From Vulcanimicrobiota bacterium (GTDB lineage: Bacteria > Vulcanimicrobiota > Vulcanimicrobiia > Vulcanimicrobiales > Vulcanimicrobiaceae): a DNA stretch of 12,255 nt. Positions within the stretch are counted from its first letter, which is position 1, and every line of letters begins with the position of its first letter. Location of the stretch: positions 1-12,255 of the forward strand of contig PKZK01000131.1 of the NCBI GenBank assembly GCA_003133025.1, read 5' to 3'. The notes beneath the pieces are model-generated. The model searched no databases, was not told where the DNA came from, and was given only the letters and a program-made list of their open reading frames with translations. The position numbers and the translations under genes are program-made. Shown here in pieces: positions 1 through 12,255 of the stretch.

Positions 1-837
1 GGCGCGTTCGCGCGCTGCGACGACTTGCGGCTCGTGGTCGTGGCCGGCGGCGCGGCGTTGCGCGCCGCGCGCGCGGCCGCGCACGGCGAGGCGGCCGGTG
101 TGCTCGACGAATTGCTGCGCGCCTTCGAGGCCGGGCGAACGCGACCCGAACGCCTGCGCCTGCGCGCGTACGATCTGGATTTCACCGGCGGCGCGAAAGT
201 CATGGGCATCCTCAACGTGACGCCNNNNNNNNNNNNNNNNNNNNNNNNNNNNNNNNNNNNNNNNNNNNNNNNNNNNNNNNNNNNNNNNNNNNNNNNNNNN
301 NNNNNNNNNNNNNNNNNNNNNNNNNNNNNNNNNNNNNNNNNNNNNGCGCGCTACGACGCCGCGCTCGTGGTCATGCACCTCAAGGGCGAACTCAACGTCC
401 GCGCCGCCGCCTACGCGTATGCCGACGCGCAAGCGGAGATTTCGGATTTCCTGCGCGAGCGGCTCGACCGGGCGCGCGCCGCGGGCGTCGCCCCGGAGTC
501 GTTGATCGTCGATCCGGGCCTGGAGTTCGGCAAGGAGCCCGAAACGGATCTGGAGATCCTCGAACGGTTCGGCGACCTGCGGGCGCTNNGCCGCAAGAGC
601 TTCATCGGGCGCATCTTCGCGCGTCCGGCCAAGGAACTGCTCGTGCCTTCGCTCGCGACCGCCGCGCTCGGGATCGCCGCCGGCGCGCGTCTGGTGCGCG
701 TCCACGACGTGGCCGAGACCAAAGAACTGGCGCGCATGCTCGCGGCGGCGCTGCCCGCGGGCCGGGCCGCGCTGCACGTCGCCCCGGCGATGCCCGGCAC
801 GCCGGGCGGAACCCTATCGACGGCGAAACTCGTCTAG
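1..837 (+). CDS. folP: Dihydropteroate synthase with N-terminal extension; 5'-truncated and interrupted by two N-gaps
   Basis: Frame 1 is open from base 1 to TAG at 835-837. DHPS motifs: VMGILNVT(P), VVMH, IVDPGLEFGK, RKSFIG, GARLVRVHDV. Lies directly upstream of folK. Confidence 0.93.
   Translation, partial: GAFARCDDLRLVVVAGGAALRAARAAAHGEAAGVLDELLRAFEAGRTRPERLRLRAYDLDFTGGAKVMGILNVTXXXXXXXXXXXXXXXXXXXXXXXXXXXXXXXXXXXXXXXXXARYDAALVVMHLKGELNVRAAAYAYADAQAEISDFLRERLDRARAAGVAPESLIVDPGLEFGKEPETDLEILERFGDLRAXXRKSFIGRIFARPAKELLVPSLATAALGIAAGARLVRVHDVAETKELARMLAAALPAGRAALHVAPAMPGTPGGTLSTAKLV
225..345. other. Assembly gap (121 N) inside folP
   Basis: Run of N. About 100 aa normally separate NVTP from the xMH strand in DHPS, so the true gap is probably longer than the 40 codons shown. 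Confidence 0.95.
588..589. other. Small assembly gap (NN) inside folP
   Basis: The beta-strand that normally precedes SRKS (e.g. xPxLxGxSRKS) is absent exactly at the NN. Confidence 0.9.
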
Positions 838-845
838 AGGTGGAT

Positions 846-2324
846 ATGCATACCGTGTACGTCGGCGTCGGGTCGAACCTCGGCGACCGCCAGGGCAACA
901 TTTTGCAGGCTCTGCAAAAGCTGCGCGCCCGCTGCGGCGTCGAGGCCGTTTCCGCCTATTACGAGACGCCGCCGCTGGCCGGGGCCGAAGGCCCCGCATT
1001 TCTCAACGTCGCGGCGCGGCTCACGACCGACCTCGAACCGGTCGAGTTCGAGCGCTTCGCGCGCGCGGTCGAGGTCGGCGTCGGCCGGCAGCGCGCGCGG
1101 CACTTGGCGGCGCGTCCGATCGATATCGACATCCTGGCCATCGACGCGCTGGCCCGCGACTTCGGCCGCTTCGAAGTGCCCCATCCGTATTTGGCCGCGC
1201 GGCCGTTCAACCTGATTCCGCTCGCCGAAATCGCACCGGGCCTCACCCTGCCCGGCCACGCGAAGACCGTCGCGGAATTGGCCGCCGCGGCCGACGCGCG
1301 CGGCATCTCGCGAAAAGTACGGTCCTTGAATTTCTTGGCCAATCGCCAAGAGGACGAACCCGACGTCAAGCTCTCGATCGCGCGCGCCGGCGTTTCCAGC
1401 GTAAAGCGTCAGGTGCGCTTGGCGCTCGACGGCAAGACGACCGTCTTCAACGGCGAGTTCACCATGGTCGCCGACCTCGCGCCCGACAAAGCCGGCGTGC
1501 ACATGTCGCGCTTCTCCGAGTTGCTCGAGGAGGCGTTGCTCGACGTGTTGGCGCGTAGCGAGCCCGCGGGCCGCATCGAGGACGTGGTGGCCACGGTGGC
1601 CCGCGAGATCGTCGATTCGCAGAAGGCGCTGCGCGCCGACGTGCGGCTGCGCGCCGATTTCGGGCTCGAGCGCTGGACGCCGGTCAGCGGCAAGCGCGGT
1701 GAGGAAACGTACACGTTGGTGGGCATCGCGCACGCCGACCGTTCGGGCGTGCGGCGTCTGGTCGGCGTCGAGGCCGAAGGCATGACGGCCTGCCCCTGCG
1801 CGCAACTGATGATCCGCGAACATTCGCTGGTCGAGTTGCGCGAAGCCGGCTTCAGCGAGGCCGATGCCAATCGCGCGCTCGACGCGCTGCCGGTCGCGAC
1901 GCACAACCAGCGCGGGCGCGGCGCGATTCTGTTGGGCACCAAGAGCGGACGCGACGCCGAGATCCGCGCCGAAGACCTCGTGGAAATCGTCGAGAACTCC
2001 ATGTCGAGCGAGACGTACGATCTGCTCAAGCGTCCCGATGAGTTCTTCATCGTGAACAAGGCGCACCACAATCCGAAATTCGTGGAAGACGTGGTGCGCG
2101 GCATCATGGGCCGCGCGCTCGACGTGTACGCCGACTTCCCCGACGACACGTTCGTCTTTGCTTCGCAAGTCAATTACGAGTCGATCCACAAGCACGACGC
2201 GCTGGCCGAGGCCTTCGGCACGTTCGGCGAACTGCGGCACGAATTGCGCACGGGCGAGCACGCGACCGAGAAGACCGATCTCGCGACCTGGCTCGGCGCG
2301 AGAAGCACCGCGGTCCTCGCGTAG
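846..2324 (+). CDS. folK-mptA: Fusion of HPPK (FolK, about 846-1300) and GTP cyclohydrolase of the FolE2/MptA family (about 1341-2324)
   Basis: HPPK motifs: VYVGVGSNLGDR, SAYYETPP, FLNVAA, RPIDIDIL, VPHP...RPFNLIPLAEIAP. FolE2/MptA motifs: GVHMSRF, MTACPCA, THNQRG, LLKRPDE, NPKFVEDVVR, NYESIHKHDA. One uninterrupted ORF with no N. ATG 846 follows AGAGG at 836-840; GTG 840 is an alternative start. Confidence 0.93.
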   Translation: MHTVYVGVGSNLGDRQGNILQALQKLRARCGVEAVSAYYETPPLAGAEGPAFLNVAARLTTDLEPVEFERFARAVEVGVGRQRARHLAARPIDIDILAIDALARDFGRFEVPHPYLAARPFNLIPLAEIAPGLTLPGHAKTVAELAAAADARGISRKVRSLNFLANRQEDEPDVKLSIARAGVSSVKRQVRLALDGKTTVFNGEFTMVADLAPDKAGVHMSRFSELLEEALLDVLARSEPAGRIEDVVATVAREIVDSQKALRADVRLRADFGLERWTPVSGKRGEETYTLVGIAHADRSGVRRLVGVEAEGMTACPCAQLMIREHSLVELREAGFSEADANRALDALPVATHNQRGRGAILLGTKSGRDAEIRAEDLVEIVENSMSSETYDLLKRPDEFFIVNKAHHNPKFVEDVVRGIMGRALDVYADFPDDTFVFASQVNYESIHKHDALAEAFGTFGELRHELRTGEHATEKTDLATWLGARSTAVLA

Positions 2325-2329
2325 TAGAC

Positions 2330-3598
2330 GTGGAAATTTGGGCTTCGCCCGAGCCCACGTTCGCGCGCATCTCCGCGGATGCCACGCGCGACCAGCTCGC
2401 CGAAACGGGCCACGAGGCCCGCGACGGCGACATCGCCCTGCTCGGGTCGCTCGGCGTTCGCGCGTCGCGGTATCCGGTGCTCTGGGAGAAGTGCGCGCCG
2501 CACGCGGGCGTCGCTCCCGACTTCACCTGGGCGCGGCGGCGCCTCGAGGCCTTGCGCGACCAGGGCATCGAGCCGGTGGTCACGCTCGTGCATCACGGCA
2601 GCGGCCCCGGCTACACGAGCCTCGTCGATCCGGGATTTCCCGAGGCGTTGGCCGCCTACGCCGGAGAAGCGGCGCGCGCTTTCCCCTGGGTGCGCCGTTG
2701 GACGCCGATCAACGAACCGCTGACGACGGCCCGGTTCTCGACGCTGTACGGCAATTGGTACCCCAACGGCCGCGACGACGACGTCGCCTTCGGGCACGCG
2801 ATCGTGTACGAAGCGCTGGGCATCCTGCTCGCGATGGAAGCGATCCGCGCGCACGCGCCCGCAGCTGAGCACGTGCTCACCGAGGATCTGCAGAACTTCA
2901 CGCCGGTCGACACCGATCCGCACACGCTCGCGACCGTGGCGCACCAGCGCGAACGCCGCTATCTGTCGGCCGAATTGTTGATGGGCCGCATCGTCGCGGG
3001 CCATCCGATGCATGCCTATCTCACCGGCACGTGCGCCGTCGCGCAGGCGCTGCTCGACCGGATCGCGGCGCATGCCTCGCCCCCCGACGTGATGGGTTGG
3101 AATTATTATCCGAATTCCGAGCGCGTCTTCACCGCGGCCGACGGCTATGTGAGCGACGTCCCGCGCGTGGTGGTGGCGCCGGGCAGCCTCTCGGCCGAAC
3201 GCATGTTGCGCGCCGCGTACGACCGGCTCGGCTTGCCCTTCGGCTTCTCCGAGGTGCACGTCAATGCCGGCGAGCGCGGCCGCATTCGCTGGCTCGCACA
3301 ACGGCGCGACGAACTCGCGCGCATCGCCGCCGACGGCCTGCCGGTGCGCATGCTCGGCGTGTGGGCCGCGTTTGGCCTCGTGGATTGGGATTCGCTCTTG
3401 CTGCGCCGCGAGGGGTATAGCGAAGACGGCGTCTTCACGTTCGCCGCACCCGACGCGACGCCGCGCGAGACCGCGCTGACGGAGGCCGTTCGCGCGCTGG
3501 CCGCCGGACGCGCGTTCGACGTGCCCGAGGAATTGGGTTGGTGGGAGACGCGGGGCACGCCCGACGGGCGCCTCGCACCGCTCGGCACCGCACGGTAG
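2330..3598 (+). CDS. GH1-like (clan GH-A) glycoside hydrolase
   Basis: RYPVLWE, TLVHHGSGP, acid/base motif TPINEPLTTARFS, MGWNYY and likely nucleophile FSEVH. Resembles the GH1-like domain often fused to RmlD. GTG start 5 nt after the previous stop. Confidence 0.85.
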   Translation: MEIWASPEPTFARISADATRDQLAETGHEARDGDIALLGSLGVRASRYPVLWEKCAPHAGVAPDFTWARRRLEALRDQGIEPVVTLVHHGSGPGYTSLVDPGFPEALAAYAGEAARAFPWVRRWTPINEPLTTARFSTLYGNWYPNGRDDDVAFGHAIVYEALGILLAMEAIRAHAPAAEHVLTEDLQNFTPVDTDPHTLATVAHQRERRYLSAELLMGRIVAGHPMHAYLTGTCAVAQALLDRIAAHASPPDVMGWNYYPNSERVFTAADGYVSDVPRVVVAPGSLSAERMLRAAYDRLGLPFGFSEVHVNAGERGRIRWLAQRRDELARIAADGLPVRMLGVWAAFGLVDWDSLLLRREGYSEDGVFTFAAPDATPRETALTEAVRALAAGRAFDVPEELGWWETRGTPDGRLAPLGTAR

Positions 3599-6896: not shown

Positions 6897-8426
6897 GTGC
6901 GACGCTTCGTCAACTGCCGGGCCTACGCTTTCGATCCCGTCGTTCGTGATTATCGGGTGTGCGACGAGATGGCGATCGACGGCTCGACCATCCTCGCCGT
7001 CGGCACCGGCTTGGCGGGCGCGAACGTCGCCACGGTCGACCTCGACGGCGCGACCGTCGTGCCGGCCTTCGCCGATTGTCACCTGCACCTGGTCGAAACC
7101 GGGCTGAGCATCGGGCCGCGCGACCTCGGCGGGGTTCGCGACGCGGCCGAGTTCGCGCGGCGCGTGGCCGCGTTGCCCGCCGACGGTGCGGTGTTCGGCG
7201 CGCACTACGACGAGTCGCTCTGGCACGACGGCGCGCAGGCTGGGGCGGCGCCGCTCGAACGCGCCTTCCCCGACCGGACGGCGATGCTCATTCGCATCGA
7301 CGGCCACTCGTCGCTGGTCAACCGGCATACGCTTGCGGAATTAGCCCTCGATCCCGCGCTCGAAGGCATCGAACGCGACGCGGACGGTGCGCCGACCGGA
7401 CGCCTCTTCGCGGCCGCGAATTGGGCCGCGCAAGCGAAGTTCTACGCGCTCTTGCCCGAGCCTCAACGCCGCTCCGCAATAGCCGATGCGCTCGAACTCG
7501 CGCTCTCGCGGGGCGCCGTGCACCTGCACGCGCAGTTGATGGGACTCGATTCGCGCGAAGCCTATGCCGACGAGATCGAGACCTTGCGCGGGCTCGGGCG
7601 CGCGAAGTGGCATCCCAAGATCTGCGAGCGCGATGCGGCGCTCGCGCGCGATCTGGGATTGCCCTACGTCGGCGGGGACGTCTTCCTCGACGGTTCGCTC
7701 GGCAGCGGTACCGCGGCACTGTGCGCGCCCTATTGCGACCGCCCCGGAAACGGACGGCTGGCGCTCGACGACGACGCGGTGCACGCGTTCTTCGCCGAGG
7801 CCGACGCGCTCGGAATCGCGGCCGGCGTGCACGCGATCGGCGATCGCGCGATCGAGCAATGTTTGTCGGCCTGGGAGCGCGTCGCGCGCGACAACGGCGG
7901 CCGGCTGCGCGCGCGCCATTTCATCGAGCACTTCGAGCTGGCGAGCGCGGACCAGATCGAGCGCGTCGCCGCACTCGGCTTGTATCTCTCCATGCAGCCG
8001 CAGTTCGATGCGCTGTGGGGCGCGCGCGGCGGCATGTACGACGCGCGACTGGGCTCCGAACGCGCGCGCGGCATGAATGCGCTCGCCGCGGCGCTCGCAG
8101 CCGGTGCGACGCTCTGCGGCGGCGACGACAGTCCGGTCTGCGCGCTCGCGCCGCTCGAGGGCATGGCGGCCGCTTGCGCGCATCACAATCCGCTCTCGCG
8201 CTTGACGCCGCTGCAGGCGCTGACGATGTACGCATACGATGCGGCGCGTCTGGGTTATGCGGAAGACAGCACGGGCGCGCTCGCGCCCGGCTTCGATGCG
8301 GATTTCGTGGTGCTCGACCGCGATCCGTTTGCGCAGGGAGACTTTGCCGGCACGAACGTGCTCGAGACGTGGGTGCGCGGCGAACGCGTCTACGCCGCAT
8401 CCGCGCGGACGGGCTCGAGCGCCTAG
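6897..8426 (+). CDS. Metal-dependent amidohydrolase, YtcJ-like (Amidohydro_3)
   Basis: VDLDGATVVPAFADCHLH, RIDGHS, FLDGSLGSGTAAL, HAIGDRA, IEH, SMQPQF, DSPV, GALAPGFDADFVVLDRDP. Confidence 0.9.
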   Translation: MRRFVNCRAYAFDPVVRDYRVCDEMAIDGSTILAVGTGLAGANVATVDLDGATVVPAFADCHLHLVETGLSIGPRDLGGVRDAAEFARRVAALPADGAVFGAHYDESLWHDGAQAGAAPLERAFPDRTAMLIRIDGHSSLVNRHTLAELALDPALEGIERDADGAPTGRLFAAANWAAQAKFYALLPEPQRRSAIADALELALSRGAVHLHAQLMGLDSREAYADEIETLRGLGRAKWHPKICERDAALARDLGLPYVGGDVFLDGSLGSGTAALCAPYCDRPGNGRLALDDDAVHAFFAEADALGIAAGVHAIGDRAIEQCLSAWERVARDNGGRLRARHFIEHFELASADQIERVAALGLYLSMQPQFDALWGARGGMYDARLGSERARGMNALAAALAAGATLCGGDDSPVCALAPLEGMAAACAHHNPLSRLTPLQALTMYAYDAARLGYAEDSTGALAPGFDADFVVLDRDPFAQGDFAGTNVLETWVRGERVYAASARTGSSA

Positions 8427-9419
8427 ATCAGCGAGATCGTCTCGGTCTTCTTCGGTTGCGCGGCAAGTGCCGCGAGCAGCGAACGCGCCAGGTCGTCGGC
8501 GACCGGATCGTCGAGTTCGTCGAGTTTGCCCGCATCGGCGATGGCCATCAGTTCCGGCCGCAGCGGAATGCGCGCCAGCACCGGCGCCTTGGCGAGATCG
8601 GCGACCTGATCGGCGTAGCTCGGGCCGAAGACGTCGTACCGCACGCCGGTGTCGGGCGCGACGAAGTACGACATGTTTTCGACGACGCCCAGAATCGGCT
8701 TCTTCAGTTGATGGATCAGGTTCGCGGCCTTGCGCACGATCATCGTGGCCAGCGCCTGCGGCATCGTGACCAGTACCACGCCATCGATCGANNTGTTCGT
8801 AGAACTGGCGGATGACGCCGGAGAGGATCGGACCGCGCCAGACCATCGCCGTGTCTTCCTCGGGCGTCAGCAGGTTGGAACTGACGACCTCGATCGCCGA
8901 GCGGGTCAACGCGGGCACGAAGAGCGGCCGCGGCTGGGCGCTGCTGTCCTGCGGGTCGCGTTCCATGCCCAGCGGCTCGCGCAGGCCGAAGAGGCGCGGG
9001 ATCGACGGACCGGTGATGTCCGCATCGAGGATGCCCACGCGCAGATTCGCGCGGCGCAGGCCGACGGCGAGCATTCCGGTGGTCAGCGACTTGCCGACCC
9101 CGCCCTTGCCGGACATGACCGCAACCACGTGCTTGAACGGTGCGCGGCGTGCGAACGCCCCGGGCGCCCGCTTCTCCGGACGGCGATCCTCGTTCATGAT
9201 CGTGGGCACCCGGCCCGAGAGCCGAGCCTGGGTCAGCGCTGCCAGAATGGGTTCGACCCGCAACCCGTGTGCCGAAGCTCCCTGTTCGAGAGTCTCATTG
9301 GCATTGACCGCACACCCCGTGCAACCCAAACCAAAGGCCGACAGCACGTCTTGGGCTATCGGCAGGGCTGCAACCAGTTCGCGCAGATTGGTCTGCGGAG
9401 AGATTTCTACGTACGGCAT
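8423..9419 (-). CDS. mrp: Mrp/ApbC/NBP35 Fe-S cluster carrier P-loop ATPase with N-terminal DUF1858-like domain; frame break at the NN gap
   Basis: 5' part (ORF from 9419): VMSGKGGVGKS, GILDADITGPS, MVWRGP. 3' part (ORF 8423..8779): DGVVLVTMPQ, PILGVVENMS, ARIPL. The two parts join across NN at 8792-8793, where the conserved WGxLDxLxxDxPPGT segment is missing. Confidence 0.92.
8792..8793. other. Small assembly gap (NN) inside mrp
   Basis: NN coincides with the frame change and with a missing conserved segment of roughly 25-30 aa. Confidence 0.9.
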
Positions 9420-9977: not shown

Positions 9978-11371
9978 TCGCGACTGCCGATCCCGACGTT
10001 CTCGTCGTCGGAGCTGGTCCGGCCGGCCTCGCAGCCGCCAAATTTCTCGCAGAAGCCGGTAAGTCGGCCGTGGTCATCGAGCGTCGCACGATGGCCGGCG
10101 GCAAGCTTTCGTCGTGGCGCGATCGCGACGGCGACTGGATCGAGAGTGGCCTGCACTCGTTCTTCGGCGGCTACGACCACGTGCACAAGCTGCTCGAAGA
10201 CGTGGGCATCTCGCACCACGTCCTCTGGCAGCCGCATACGCTGACCTGGGCGTTCCCGCCCGGCTTCAGCAACCGTTGGGATTCCACGGACCCCGTGTTC
10301 GAAGAGTTCCACTTCGTCGATCTGCCCGCGCCGCTCAACGGCGTGGGTGCCGTGTTGAAGGGCAAGTACGTCTTCAATACGGTCGAGAAGCTGCTCTTCG
10401 CCAAGGGCACGCTTCCCGTGCTGTTGGGCGATCACGAGTACGCCGAGCGTCAAGACGACATCAGCTACTCGACGTGGCATCGCGCCCGGGGCATGAGCGA
10501 GCACATGTTGCGCGCCTTCTTCGCGCCGATGTCGCTGGCGCTGAACTTCACCTCGATCGACCAGATCTCGGCCGAAGCGATGCTGCGCGTGATGGCCTAC
10601 TTCGCCTCGAGCAAGAACGCCAGCCGGGCCGGCTTCCTCGACGGACCGCCCTCGGAGCGCTTCGTCAAGCCGATCGTCGAGCACATCGGCGCGCGCGGGC
10701 AGCAGGTACACCTCAGCGCGGGCGCCGCCGAATTGATCTTCGAAGGCGACCGCGTGGCGGGCGTCAAGACGCTCGACGGCCGGGAGTACCGCGCCGAGGC
10801 CACGATCCTCGCGGTGCCCGTGCACAATGCGGCGCGGCTGCTGCCGGCGGAGATGCTGCGCGATCCGCTCGTCCACGGCGTGGGCAAGCTCACCTCGAGC
10901 CCGATCATCAACGCGCACCTCTGGTTCGACCGCCCGGTGTCGCGCTTCACCAACCTGATCTTTGCCCCGGGCACGATCCTGCCGGTGCACGCCGACCTGG
11001 GTCAGGCCTCGGCCGGGTACGAGTGGCCGGGTAAATCGTTCATCGAGGTCTGCGTGGCCCCGGCCGACGATCTGATCAAACAGGACGACGAGACGGTGAT
11101 CGGCCGCGTGCTCGACGACCTGCACAAACTGTATCCGCTCGCCTCGCGCGAGAACCTCGTCAAAGCCAAGCTCGTACGCATTCCGCGCAGCGTCTACCGG
11201 GCAAGTCCGGGCGCCGAACGGTTGCGACCAGGCGCGCGGACGCCGGTGAGGAATCTGTTTCTGGCTGGTTGTTATACCAACCATCGTTTCCCCGCGAGCT
11301 TGGAAGGGGCTGTCAGGAGTGCGCGAGTCGCCGTCGACCTGGCCTTGGAGCAGGTCGGTGTTCGAACGTAA
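9974..11371 (+). CDS. crtP: FAD-dependent carotenoid desaturase, CrtP/PDS-like (CrtP/CrtQ family)
   Basis: In frame upstream of the track's GTG 10070 lies DVLVVGAGPAGLAAAKFL (GxGxxG). Then GGKLSSWRDRDGDWIESGLHSFFGGY, LPAPLNG, MSLALNF, FLDGPPSER, INAHLWFDR, LAGCYT, ASLEGAVRS. Adjacent to crtB. Start inferred at CTG 9974. CrtP versus CrtQ is not certain. Confidence 0.8.
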   Translation: MIATADPDVLVVGAGPAGLAAAKFLAEAGKSAVVIERRTMAGGKLSSWRDRDGDWIESGLHSFFGGYDHVHKLLEDVGISHHVLWQPHTLTWAFPPGFSNRWDSTDPVFEEFHFVDLPAPLNGVGAVLKGKYVFNTVEKLLFAKGTLPVLLGDHEYAERQDDISYSTWHRARGMSEHMLRAFFAPMSLALNFTSIDQISAEAMLRVMAYFASSKNASRAGFLDGPPSERFVKPIVEHIGARGQQVHLSAGAAELIFEGDRVAGVKTLDGREYRAEATILAVPVHNAARLLPAEMLRDPLVHGVGKLTSSPIINAHLWFDRPVSRFTNLIFAPGTILPVHADLGQASAGYEWPGKSFIEVCVAPADDLIKQDDETVIGRVLDDLHKLYPLASRENLVKAKLVRIPRSVYRASPGAERLRPGARTPVRNLFLAGCYTNHRFPASLEGAVRSARVAVDLALEQVGVRT

Positions 11372-12255
11372 GTCCGAGATCCTCGCATCGAGCGAAGCGC
11401 CGCTGCATGCGGCGGCGCCCGAGCTTCGTGCTGCATACGCGACCTGCCGCGAAATCACGAGCGTCGCCTCGAAGACGTTCTATTTGGCCTCGCTCTTCCT
11501 CAATCCGGAGCGCCGGCGCGCGGTCTGGGCCGTGTACGCGGTCTGTCGCACGGCCGACGACATCGTCGACCGCACGGCGCCGCCGGCCGAACGCCTCGCG
11601 GCGATCGACGCCCTCGAGCGCAAGCTGCTCGACGCGCTGAGCGGGAATGCGAGTGAACCGATTTTCCTGGCCTACGCCGATGCGGCCGCCAGATACGACA
11701 TCCCGCTCGACCCGGCGCTCGCACTCTTGCGCGGAGCGCGCATGGACGTGACCGTCAGGCGCTACGCGACCTTCGAGGAGCTGTGCGATTACTGCTACCT
11801 CGTCGCATCGACGGTGGGCCTGTTGGTGTCGCCGATCCTCGGCTTCGCTTCGCCCGAAGCGCTCGAGTACGGCATCACCTTGGGCCGGGCCATGCAACTG
11901 ACCAACATTCTGCGCGACGTCGGTGAAGACGCGCTGATGGGCAGGATATACCTTCCTGCGGAAGACCTGCAACGCTTCGGTTACCCCGAGCAGGCCATCT
12001 TCGAAGGCGTGGTCGACGAGCCGTTCACCGAGATGATGCGCTTCCAGATCGAGCGCGTCCGCGCGCTCTACGCCCAGGCCGAGCCCGGCATCGCCCTGCT
12101 CGCGCCCGAGTCGCGCTACACCGTCAAGCTAGCCCTCTCGCTCTACAGCCGCATCCTGCGCTCGATCGAGCTGAATCGCTACGACGTCTTCACCAAGCGC
12201 GCCTACGTCCCGCTCCGTTCGAAGATCGTCACCGCGTTAGGGCTAGCCCTAACGC
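11358..12255 (+). CDS. crtB: Phytoene synthase, 3'-truncated near its end (absent from the ORF track because it has no stop in the window)
   Basis: Own translation from GTG 11358 (GGAG at 11347-11350): SKTFYLAS, AVWAVYAVCRTADDIVD, YCYLVASTVG, MQLTNILRDVGEDALMGRIYLP, NRYDVFTKRAYV. Frame is open to the window end and overlaps crtP by 14 nt. Confidence 0.93.
   Translation, partial: MFERKSEILASSEAPLHAAAPELRAAYATCREITSVASKTFYLASLFLNPERRRAVWAVYAVCRTADDIVDRTAPPAERLAAIDALERKLLDALSGNASEPIFLAYADAAARYDIPLDPALALLRGARMDVTVRRYATFEELCDYCYLVASTVGLLVSPILGFASPEALEYGITLGRAMQLTNILRDVGEDALMGRIYLPAEDLQRFGYPEQAIFEGVVDEPFTEMMRFQIERVRALYAQAEPGIALLAPESRYTVKLALSLYSRILRSIELNRYDVFTKRAYVPLRSKIVTALGLALT

Follow-up and report, generated by a model that had tools for sequence, protein, structure and literature searches.

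A putative FolKE analogue in the Eremiobacterota: HPPK fused to a non-homologous GTP cyclohydrolase of the MptA/FolE2 family

The fused gene and its two halves

The DNA analysed here is a stretch of 12,255 nt from a Vulcanimicrobiota bacterium (contig PKZK01000131.1 of GenBank assembly GCA_003133025.1), hereafter called the window. On its plus strand, at 846..2324, lies a gene predicted to encode a protein of 492 amino acids (aa) in which HPPK (FolK) is fused to a GTP cyclohydrolase of the MptA/FolE2 family. The open reading frame (ORF) starts with the ATG at 846, contains no internal stop and ends with the TAG at 2322-2324, which a second TAG adjoins (TAG TAG, 2322-2327). A previous reading of this locus, made from the letters alone and referred to below as the sequence-only reading, had placed the gene at exactly these coordinates and had described it as one ORF without gaps, in which a short linker connects two full domains. 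The Pfam profiles bear out this description, PF01288 being matched over positions 1-116 of 116 and PF02649 over positions 5-260 of 260. The window contains 68% G+C, and long open frames are common in it as a result (64 ORFs of at least 60 aa); even at this composition, the scores of both domains are far beyond chance. Taken together, the comparisons laid out below indicate that the gene encodes a real, conserved and uncharacterised analogue of FolKE, built on a non-homologous cyclohydrolase and far less rare than had been supposed.

The HPPK core occupies residues 5-131 (858..1238, plus strand), and the fold as a whole extends to about residue 150 (nt 1295). The core matches PF01288 with 102.4 bits (cut-off 25.7, E 2.5e-29) and the NCBIfam folK model TIGR01498 with 97 bits (cut-off 54.1) over positions 1-128 of 128. 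Foldseek comparison with the PDB returned HPPK structures with E-values of about 1e-12 to 1e-13 and template modelling (TM) scores of 0.82-0.93, the entries 5etq, 2qx0 and 4crj reaching 0.91-0.93 on target with a root mean square deviation of 1.7-1.9. Alignment to the E. coli HPPK chain 3hd2 points to Asp93 and Asp95 (1122-1124 and 1128-1130, plus strand) as the Mg-binding pair, equivalent to E. coli D95 and D97, and pairs R81, R90, N54, F52, R119, F121 and H113 with R82, R92, N55, Y53, R121, F123 and H115, respectively. Conservation was counted over the window and 80 related loci, 81 sequences in all. The equivalents of R82, R92, D95, N55 and Y53 are conserved in 80/80, that of D97 in 79/80, that of R121 in 81/81 and that of H115 in 78/81, and the F123 position holds Phe or Tyr in all. 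Moreover, N54, R81, R90, D93, D95 and R119 are invariant over 77 fused proteins from both phyla that carry the fusion, in an alignment that leaves out two degenerate members (P0125 and P0135). Most of the roles attached to these residues (the Asp pair for Mg, the loop-3 arginines, the stacking aromatics and the Asn) are presumably those described for HPPKs in general; the portions of the HPPK literature consulted speak to Asp95, Trp89 and the stacking Phe54/Phe123. By residue conservation, the HPPK half looks active.

The cyclohydrolase domain, a bimodular T-fold, covers residues 168-467 (1347..2246, plus strand). Its PF02649 (GCHY-1) match extends over residues 168-454 with 210.8 bits (E 3.3e-62), and no other cyclohydrolase family was matched in the fused protein by Pfam at E up to 0.01. 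Among PDB entries, Foldseek aligned this half with the GCYH-IB structures 8g8v, 8g6c, 3d2o and 2r5r (E about 1e-18, TM 0.79-0.82 on target). In the B. pseudomallei enzyme, according to the portions of PMC11573665 consulted, one subunit supplies Cys154 and His166 to the metal site and a second one supplies Glu208; Cys156 and Arg205 are close by, and the active sites lie at three-subunit interfaces of a homotetramer. Alignment to the 8g6c chain, which has a 34-residue numbering offset, equates these five residues, in the same order, with Cys316, His353, Glu399, Cys318 and Arg396 of the fused protein; the predicted metal ligands Cys316, His353 and Glu399 are encoded at 1791-1793, 1902-1904 and 2040-2042 on the plus strand. 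Each of the five is conserved in 81/81 sequences, as are the GxHMSRF, HNQR and ESIHxH motifs. By conservation of its ligands, the cyclohydrolase half looks active as well.

Between the CPC and HNQR motifs, about 30 residues (319-352; 1800..1901, plus strand) form a helical insert, which appears as a gap against 8g6c, 3d2o and 2r5r and which the AlphaFold2 model renders as helices 317-333 and 338-347. The insert is absent from the solved short FolE2 enzymes, and the model TIGR00294 ('GTP cyclohydrolase MptA') aligns through it unbroken, scoring 263 bits against a cut-off of 220 over residues 168-467 (positions 4-301 of 302). These features place the cyclohydrolase in the long 'MptA-like' branch of its family rather than in the short one, that of the characterised FolE2 enzymes. 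It may accordingly make 7,8-dihydroneopterin triphosphate, the product of FolE2, or else the 2',3'-cyclic phosphate, which archaeal MptA forms.

About 15 poorly conserved residues join the two domains; of all stretches of the protein, this linker (residues ~151-167; 1296..1346, plus strand) shows the lowest conservation and the lowest model confidence. Mean column conservation is 0.54 over residues 132-167 and 0.775 over residues 455-492; the conserved NRQ-E-x-P-D-V motif at the end of the linker already belongs to the N-terminal arm of the cyclohydrolase domain. In the C-terminal tail (residues 468-492; 2247..2321, plus strand), Trp482 is invariant in two alignments. The AlphaFold2 model, built on a 77-sequence alignment, has a mean predicted local distance difference test score (pLDDT) of 89.1 and a predicted TM score of 0.66. 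It is weak at residues 161-180 (pLDDT blocks of 57 and 74) and at 41-50 and 81-90, which are loops known to be mobile in HPPK. No PDB match spanning both halves appeared among the Foldseek matches listed. Because it is short, poorly conserved and poorly modelled, the linker would seem to be a tether rather than a fixed interface. Folded as separate chains, the two halves gave a score of 0.34, the best of three controls giving 0.00. The mark set in the docking benchmark was reached by 116/157 solved complexes and 2/215 mismatched pairs, scores of 0.60 or less coming from only 18/157 solved complexes and from both mismatches that passed. The docking runs share at least 79% of their contacts at a partner pLDDT of at least 81, and the alignment was a custom one, which makes the benchmark counts only a rough guide. 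The predicted contact between HPPK and cyclohydrolase thus has weak support, and we do not take it as evidence of binding. To the ideas of the sequence-only reading, that HPPK might be scaffolded on the T-fold oligomer or that the fusion might allow feedback control, the docking likewise lends weak support.

Distribution, origin and gene context

A scan of one genome per species gave 599 pattern matches, 360 of which encode a relative of the fused protein, and the best 80 of the 360 were kept as the loci counted here. One tblastn segment runs stop-free across both domains in 80/80. The gene is full length (471-500 aa) in 79 of them and stops at the contig end in the other (L055), and it is continuous also in four records labelled as whole chromosomes (L029, L041, L066 and L075). 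Most of the 80 loci are named Vulcanimicrobiota, Eremiobacteraeota, Baltobacteraceae or Vulcanimicrobiaceae. Seven lie in bins named Rhodospirillales, Alphaproteobacteria, Armatimonadota, Binatia or Verrucomicrobiia (L002, L003, L005, L013, L016, L017 and L048); their fused genes are 68-80% identical to those of Eremiobacterota, and the names probably reflect binning or naming and not the true range of the gene.

Protein collections give a similar picture. Both Pfam domains were present in 120/120 of the matches listed, the named ones being of Eremiobacterota type, and a profile made from seven divergent fused representatives again found both domains in 120/120 of the matches listed. The names attached to these more divergent matches were Chloroflexota, Anaerolineae, Anaerolineaceae, Ardenticatenaceae and, once, Eremiobacteraceae; the taxa of the divergent proteins are read from such names, which a minority of the matches carry. 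In a language-model atlas, the three nearest clusters listed all combine HPPK with the cyclohydrolase, one being mostly from Chloroflexota and two from Vulcanimicrobiota. Among the best 150 representatives at 50% identity, 30 align to both halves, and 11 are essentially full length, down to 35% identity. Judged by these surveys, the fusion is the standard form in the Eremiobacterota (Vulcanimicrobiota) and is present also in Anaerolineae-type Chloroflexota.

The rarity implied by the sequence-only reading is thus not upheld, the fusion having been present in public databases under automatic names. The NCBI pipeline calls it 'GTP cyclohydrolase MptA' (or FolE2), and IMG 'GTP cyclohydrolase-4/IV'. 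Since such names refer to the cyclohydrolase only, the HPPK half is invisible in annotation, and a label from archaeal methanopterin synthesis sits on what appears to be a bacterial folate gene. Metabolic reconstructions that assign one function to each gene would find neither folK nor a GTP cyclohydrolase step of the folate type, and two widespread phyla of soil and peat could be miscalled folate auxotrophs.

The origin of the fusion was approached by computing a quick maximum-likelihood tree (LG+G4, with support from the Shimodaira–Hasegawa-like approximate likelihood ratio test, SH-aLRT, only) for 85 cyclohydrolase domains, in which a row was labelled as fused if its domain BLAST match begins after residue 120. 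Of the 22 fused rows, 21 fall in one group of 26 rows (SH-aLRT 92). Among the five other rows of this group, P0226 is a fused protein in truncated form, P0262 carries a frameshift, and P0142 and P0147 are apparently genuinely standalone. The remaining fused row, P0225 (599 aa), has a different N-terminal partner, a part of 280 residues to which no family was assigned, and an Fpg-type H2TH domain was seen in P0220 (763 aa). When only strongly supported branches are trusted, the tree requires at least three state changes; it would thus accommodate one fusion with a few later fissions, without proving this history. We infer one origin of the fusion, or a few. Among standalone relatives that carry names, the nearest (about 50% identity) come from Gaiellaceae (Actinomycetota). 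A second large standalone group, set apart by a branch with support 99, holds the best TIGR00294 scorer (P0174, 426 bits), and we assume it to be the archaeal MptA side.

Immediately upstream of the fused gene, the window contains the 3' part of folP, the dihydropteroate synthase gene (1..837, plus strand, frame 1, stop codon TAG at 835-837), whose 5' end lies outside the window. Its identity is given by Pfam Pterin_bind (73 bits) and by a partial match to the NCBIfam DHPS model TIGR01496. Runs of N lie at 225-345, 588-589 and 8792-8793, and the first of these costs folP about 40 mid-gene codons. The frame of the fused gene is open already from base 3 up to 2324, a stretch that holds two genes. 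The stop codon of folP and the ATG of the fused gene are separated by 8 nt, in which the Shine-Dalgarno-like AGGTGG (838..843, plus strand, read from the sequence) directly follows the folP stop and ends 2 nt before the ATG; this arrangement suggests translational coupling of the two genes. In one database protein, P0120 (803 aa), FolP, HPPK and cyclohydrolase stand in a single chain, either by read-through of an 8-nt gap or as a true triple fusion. It was also observed that 60-118 residues of the FolP ORF precede the pterin-binding domain (window 1-210; L026:3035-3400; L033:6921-7175), Pterin_bind beginning at FolP residue 83 in L033 and 119 in L026. This stretch may be a true extension or may result from an early start codon in G+C-rich DNA; a FolB hidden in it was considered and rejected, Pfam finding no match there even at E up to 10.

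The gene context was surveyed in 8-kb flanks of the 80 loci. In 36/80, the fused gene is preceded on its own strand by folP, and in 25 of the 36 no more than 150 nt separate it from the end of the folP match. In 21/80, a gene upstream on the opposite strand encodes a PabB-PabC fusion for p-aminobenzoate synthesis, made up of a chorismate-binding domain and a class IV aminotransferase; the distance is at most 1 kb in 20. One or the other adjoins the fused gene in 57 of the 80 loci, and the context, as read from gene order, is one of folate synthesis. The PabB-PabC gene, exemplified by L054:5859-7589 (minus strand, 576 aa) and found in 20 further loci, is divergent and just upstream of the fused gene, and in Baltobacteraceae-type loci it occupies the place taken by folP in the window's own group. 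Neighbouring ORFs of at least 90 aa were clustered, which gave 53 clusters present in at least eight loci; representatives of 47 were scanned, the fused gene itself and five clusters inside it being left out. No methanopterin gene was found among the conserved neighbours tested.

Downstream, an ORF of 422 aa (2330..3598, plus strand) starts 5 nt past the fused-gene stop. It encodes a distant GH1-like protein, with a Pfam Glyco_hydro_1 match of 33.5 bits over residues 27-260 and matches to beta-glucosidases of the PDB at E 2e-10 and weaker. A gene of this kind is found by tblastn downstream of the fused gene in 32/80 loci, and it is probably co-transcribed with it. No riboswitch or other RNA family was found in the window; promoter-like sites number 0, and terminator-like sites 2 against 2.9 expected.

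Farther along, two genes at the 3' end of the window overlap by 53 nt, one for a phytoene-desaturase/HpnE-like amine oxidase (10070-11371, plus strand) and one of the phytoene/squalene-synthase family (11319-12254, plus strand). Both score below the equivalog cut-offs, and a carotenoid and a hopanoid pathway are both possible. On the minus strand, an ORF of 692 aa (7341-9419) overlaps a plus-strand amidohydrolase gene (6897-8426). Its matches, to models for an Mrp/ApbC-type P-loop ATPase and for DUF1858, are confined to the first 210 residues; the true gene is probably much shorter, a related copy in L023 having 367 aa.

Proposed function and rival readings

The observations are probably best explained, as a whole, by a bifunctional folate enzyme of the pterin branch, HPPK plus long-branch GTP cyclohydrolase, encoded by an inherited fusion. 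The N-terminal HPPK would transfer pyrophosphate from ATP to 6-hydroxymethyl-7,8-dihydropterin, and the C-terminal metal-dependent COG1469/PF02649 cyclohydrolase would open the pathway from GTP by ring opening and rearrangement, so that two independent sites would serve the first step and the pyrophosphorylation step. As the sequence-only reading had remarked, these activities are non-consecutive in the pathway. The short flexible linker would tether the two domains, and, since the solved FolE2 enzymes are homotetramers with active sites between subunits, one T-fold tetramer might bear four HPPK domains. The fused gene would probably be translated together with folP, and the plainest benefit may be fixed 1:1 co-expression of two pathway enzymes and their co-regulation with folP. 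Neither site makes the substrate of the other, and the steps in between take place elsewhere, which makes substrate channelling unlikely.

Several observations weigh against this proposal, and some of them concern the cyclohydrolase and its pathway. The FolE2 equivalog NF010200 failed, at 136.8 bits against a cut-off of 215, as did a second 'GTP cyclohydrolase IV' model, NF010204 (134 bits against 468). In 17 relatives tested, NF010200 gave 99-173 bits, all below its cut-off, and the TIGR00294 cut-off was passed by 16 of the 17, the exception being P0141 at 157.7. The sequence-only label 'FolE2/MptA' is thus supported in its MptA part by the model that was passed (263 against 220) and loses its FolE2 part at the equivalog level. 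Furthermore, none of FolB, Nudix/folQ and HD-type phosphodiesterase was found among the 47 neighbour-cluster representatives scanned in the 8-kb flanks, which implies that the intermediate steps are encoded elsewhere or by something unrecognised. Model scores, then, lean towards MptA for the product; the organism and the neighbouring genes lean towards folate. A FolB profile gave 21-25.5 bits (cut-off 31.8) with three of the four Chloroflexota members tested (P0341, P0291 and P0304), the matches lying in their first T-fold half; a FolB hidden in the fusion was rejected, these sub-threshold matches being taken as T-fold superfamily kinship and not as an aldolase domain.

Because the MptA model was passed, the FolE2 model failed and no folB or folQ lies nearby, we leave open a reading in which both phyla begin the pathway in the archaeal MptA style (iron-dependent, by way of the 2',3'-cyclic phosphate), with the enzyme docked to HPPK on the T-fold tetramer, although we regard it as unlikely. 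If it were true, the pterin pathway of these bacteria would be an archaeal/bacterial hybrid, and the repeated fusion, here and in Lactococcus, would reflect functional coupling, for example through an HPPK site whose occupancy controls the first step. In this respect, the fused proteins constitute a large natural test set for the products of the bacterial 'MptA-like' branch.

The other points against the bifunctional enzyme bear on its HPPK half. Mean column conservation is lower there than in the cyclohydrolase half (0.715 against 0.855), and the positions that correspond to P43 and L45 of the pterin pocket are variable. The tip of loop 3, R88-W89-G90-P91 in E. coli, has become x-Leu-x-Ala in Eremiobacterota (Leu in 79/80, Ala in 80/80); the window reads His-Leu-Ala-Ala-Arg in place of the canonical Arg-Trp-Gly-Pro-Arg, of which only the final Arg is conserved, and Trp-Gly-Pro is present in all solved HPPKs. 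In addition, the HPPK half is visibly degenerate in two distantly related fused proteins: P0135 is without the Asp-x-Asp and GSNLGD motifs and shows no folK match, and in P0125 the His/Arg segment is missing. Both keep an intact cyclohydrolase half, and their HPPK halves may be pseudo-enzyme domains. Some distant lineages can thus lose HPPK motifs, and the architecture can outlast this loss.

These points would fit a protein in which the cyclohydrolase is active and the HPPK half catalytically dead, retained as a regulatory module that binds pterin or nucleotide or as a structural one on the T-fold tetramer, the real HPPK being encoded elsewhere. We consider this quite unlikely for the window's clade, where the Mg ligands and the two catalytic arginines persist in 79-80/80 sequences, along with the equivalents of R121 (81/81) and H115 (78/81). 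The folK model was passed (97 bits against 54.1), and the fold matches solved HPPKs with a TM of up to 0.93. The altered loop is itself conserved, which speaks for constraint and not for decay; since, moreover, the fused forms of Chloroflexota retain Gly-Pro-Arg, the change in loop 3 may be seen as a lineage variant.

That the fused protein serves a non-folate pterin pathway altogether, for example one leading to a methanopterin-like cofactor through a cyclic phosphate intermediate, seems very unlikely. Such a pathway would fit the outcome of the TIGR00294 and FolE2 models, the branch with support 99 that separates the fusion group from the standalone group with P0174 (426 bits) and the lack of any folB seen nearby. 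However, two hallmarks of folate synthesis, folP in 36/80 and pabB-pabC in 21/80, are neighbours of the gene, its fusion partner is a canonical bacterial FolK and not an archaeal kinase, the conserved neighbours tested include no methanopterin gene, and the nearest named standalone relatives, from Gaiellaceae, are bacterial. Finally, a fusion created by a sequencing or assembly join of adjacent genes, or by a chance open frame, might be suspected from the many long ORFs of this G+C-rich window, from the frame that is open from base 3 and from visible frameshifts in some database relatives (P0226 and P0262), but is refuted by the same continuous gene in 80/80 independent assemblies, four of them labelled chromosomes, by both domains in 120/120 and 120/120 database matches listed and by a junction sequence conserved in register across loci.

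Comparison with known systems

The sequence-only reading knew of no characterised FolK-FolE2/MptA fusion, and literature searches found none either. It had also allowed that the architecture might prove widespread and already described: widespread it is, in two phyla, and no published description of an HPPK-FolE2/MptA fusion was found in a search that did not extend to the primary FolE2 and MptA papers. The fusion goes unmentioned in the consulted portions of PMC1971073, PMC2474590, PMC5041015, PMC4790348 and PMC5445326. In the part of the PMC1971073 table consulted, where four Chloroflexi genera were sought, only Dehalococcoides is represented; folK and folP are separate there, and FolE2 is lacking.

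The bifunctional enzyme proposed here is reminiscent of Lactococcus lactis FolKE, in which, according to the consulted part of PMC10764224, HPPK comes first and a type IA GTP cyclohydrolase second in one polypeptide; its gene sits in the folate cluster folKEPQC (PMC1971073, in the part consulted). As far as these excerpts go, the two proteins share the same two non-consecutive activities, the same domain order and a folate gene setting. Unlike the domain found here, the lactococcal FolE is of type IA and unrelated in sequence to PF02649, and lactococcal FolKE has been studied by overexpression, whereas the present fusion is known from sequence alone. Since the order is the same and PF02649 is the only cyclohydrolase family matched, convergent evolution of the FolKE architecture, as put forward in the sequence-only reading, is a fair inference. 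A second independent fusion of HPPK with a cyclohydrolase in turn suggests a selective advantage in linking two non-adjacent steps.

With the solved GCYH-IB/FolE2 enzymes of N. gonorrhoeae (3D2O), B. pseudomallei (8G6C) and N. europaea (2R5R), the cyclohydrolase half shares the Pfam family, the bimodular T-fold, the Cys/His/Glu metal site and the CPC, HNQR and KRPDE motifs. It differs from them by its low identity (24-27% in structural alignments), by the insert of about 30 residues and by the C-terminal tail; the solved enzymes, moreover, are standalone proteins of about 250-270 residues, whereas the domain is here fused to HPPK. MptA of archaea (GTP cyclohydrolase IV, TIGR00294) is Fe(II)-dependent and yields 7,8-dihydroneopterin 2',3'-cyclic phosphate. 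The likeness to it lies in the full-length model that was passed and in a length and insert that fit the long form. Unlike archaeal MptA, the present enzyme has a bacterial host, a folate context (folP, pabBC) and a fused bacterial FolK, and its 263 bits stand well below those of the best TIGR00294 match across the branch with support 99.

HPPK fused to another enzyme of the folate pathway is also found in FolB-FolK of S. pneumoniae (2CG8) and in FolK-FolP of Francisella (3MCM/4PZV) and the multi-enzymes of yeast and plants. The HPPK domains of these proteins are homologous to the present one; FolB-FolK and FolK-FolP, however, join consecutive steps, whereas here the first step is joined to pyrophosphorylation. 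Accordingly, the closest functional precedent for the fused protein is lactococcal FolKE, its closest structural relatives are the solved FolE2 enzymes and its closest curated family is TIGR00294.

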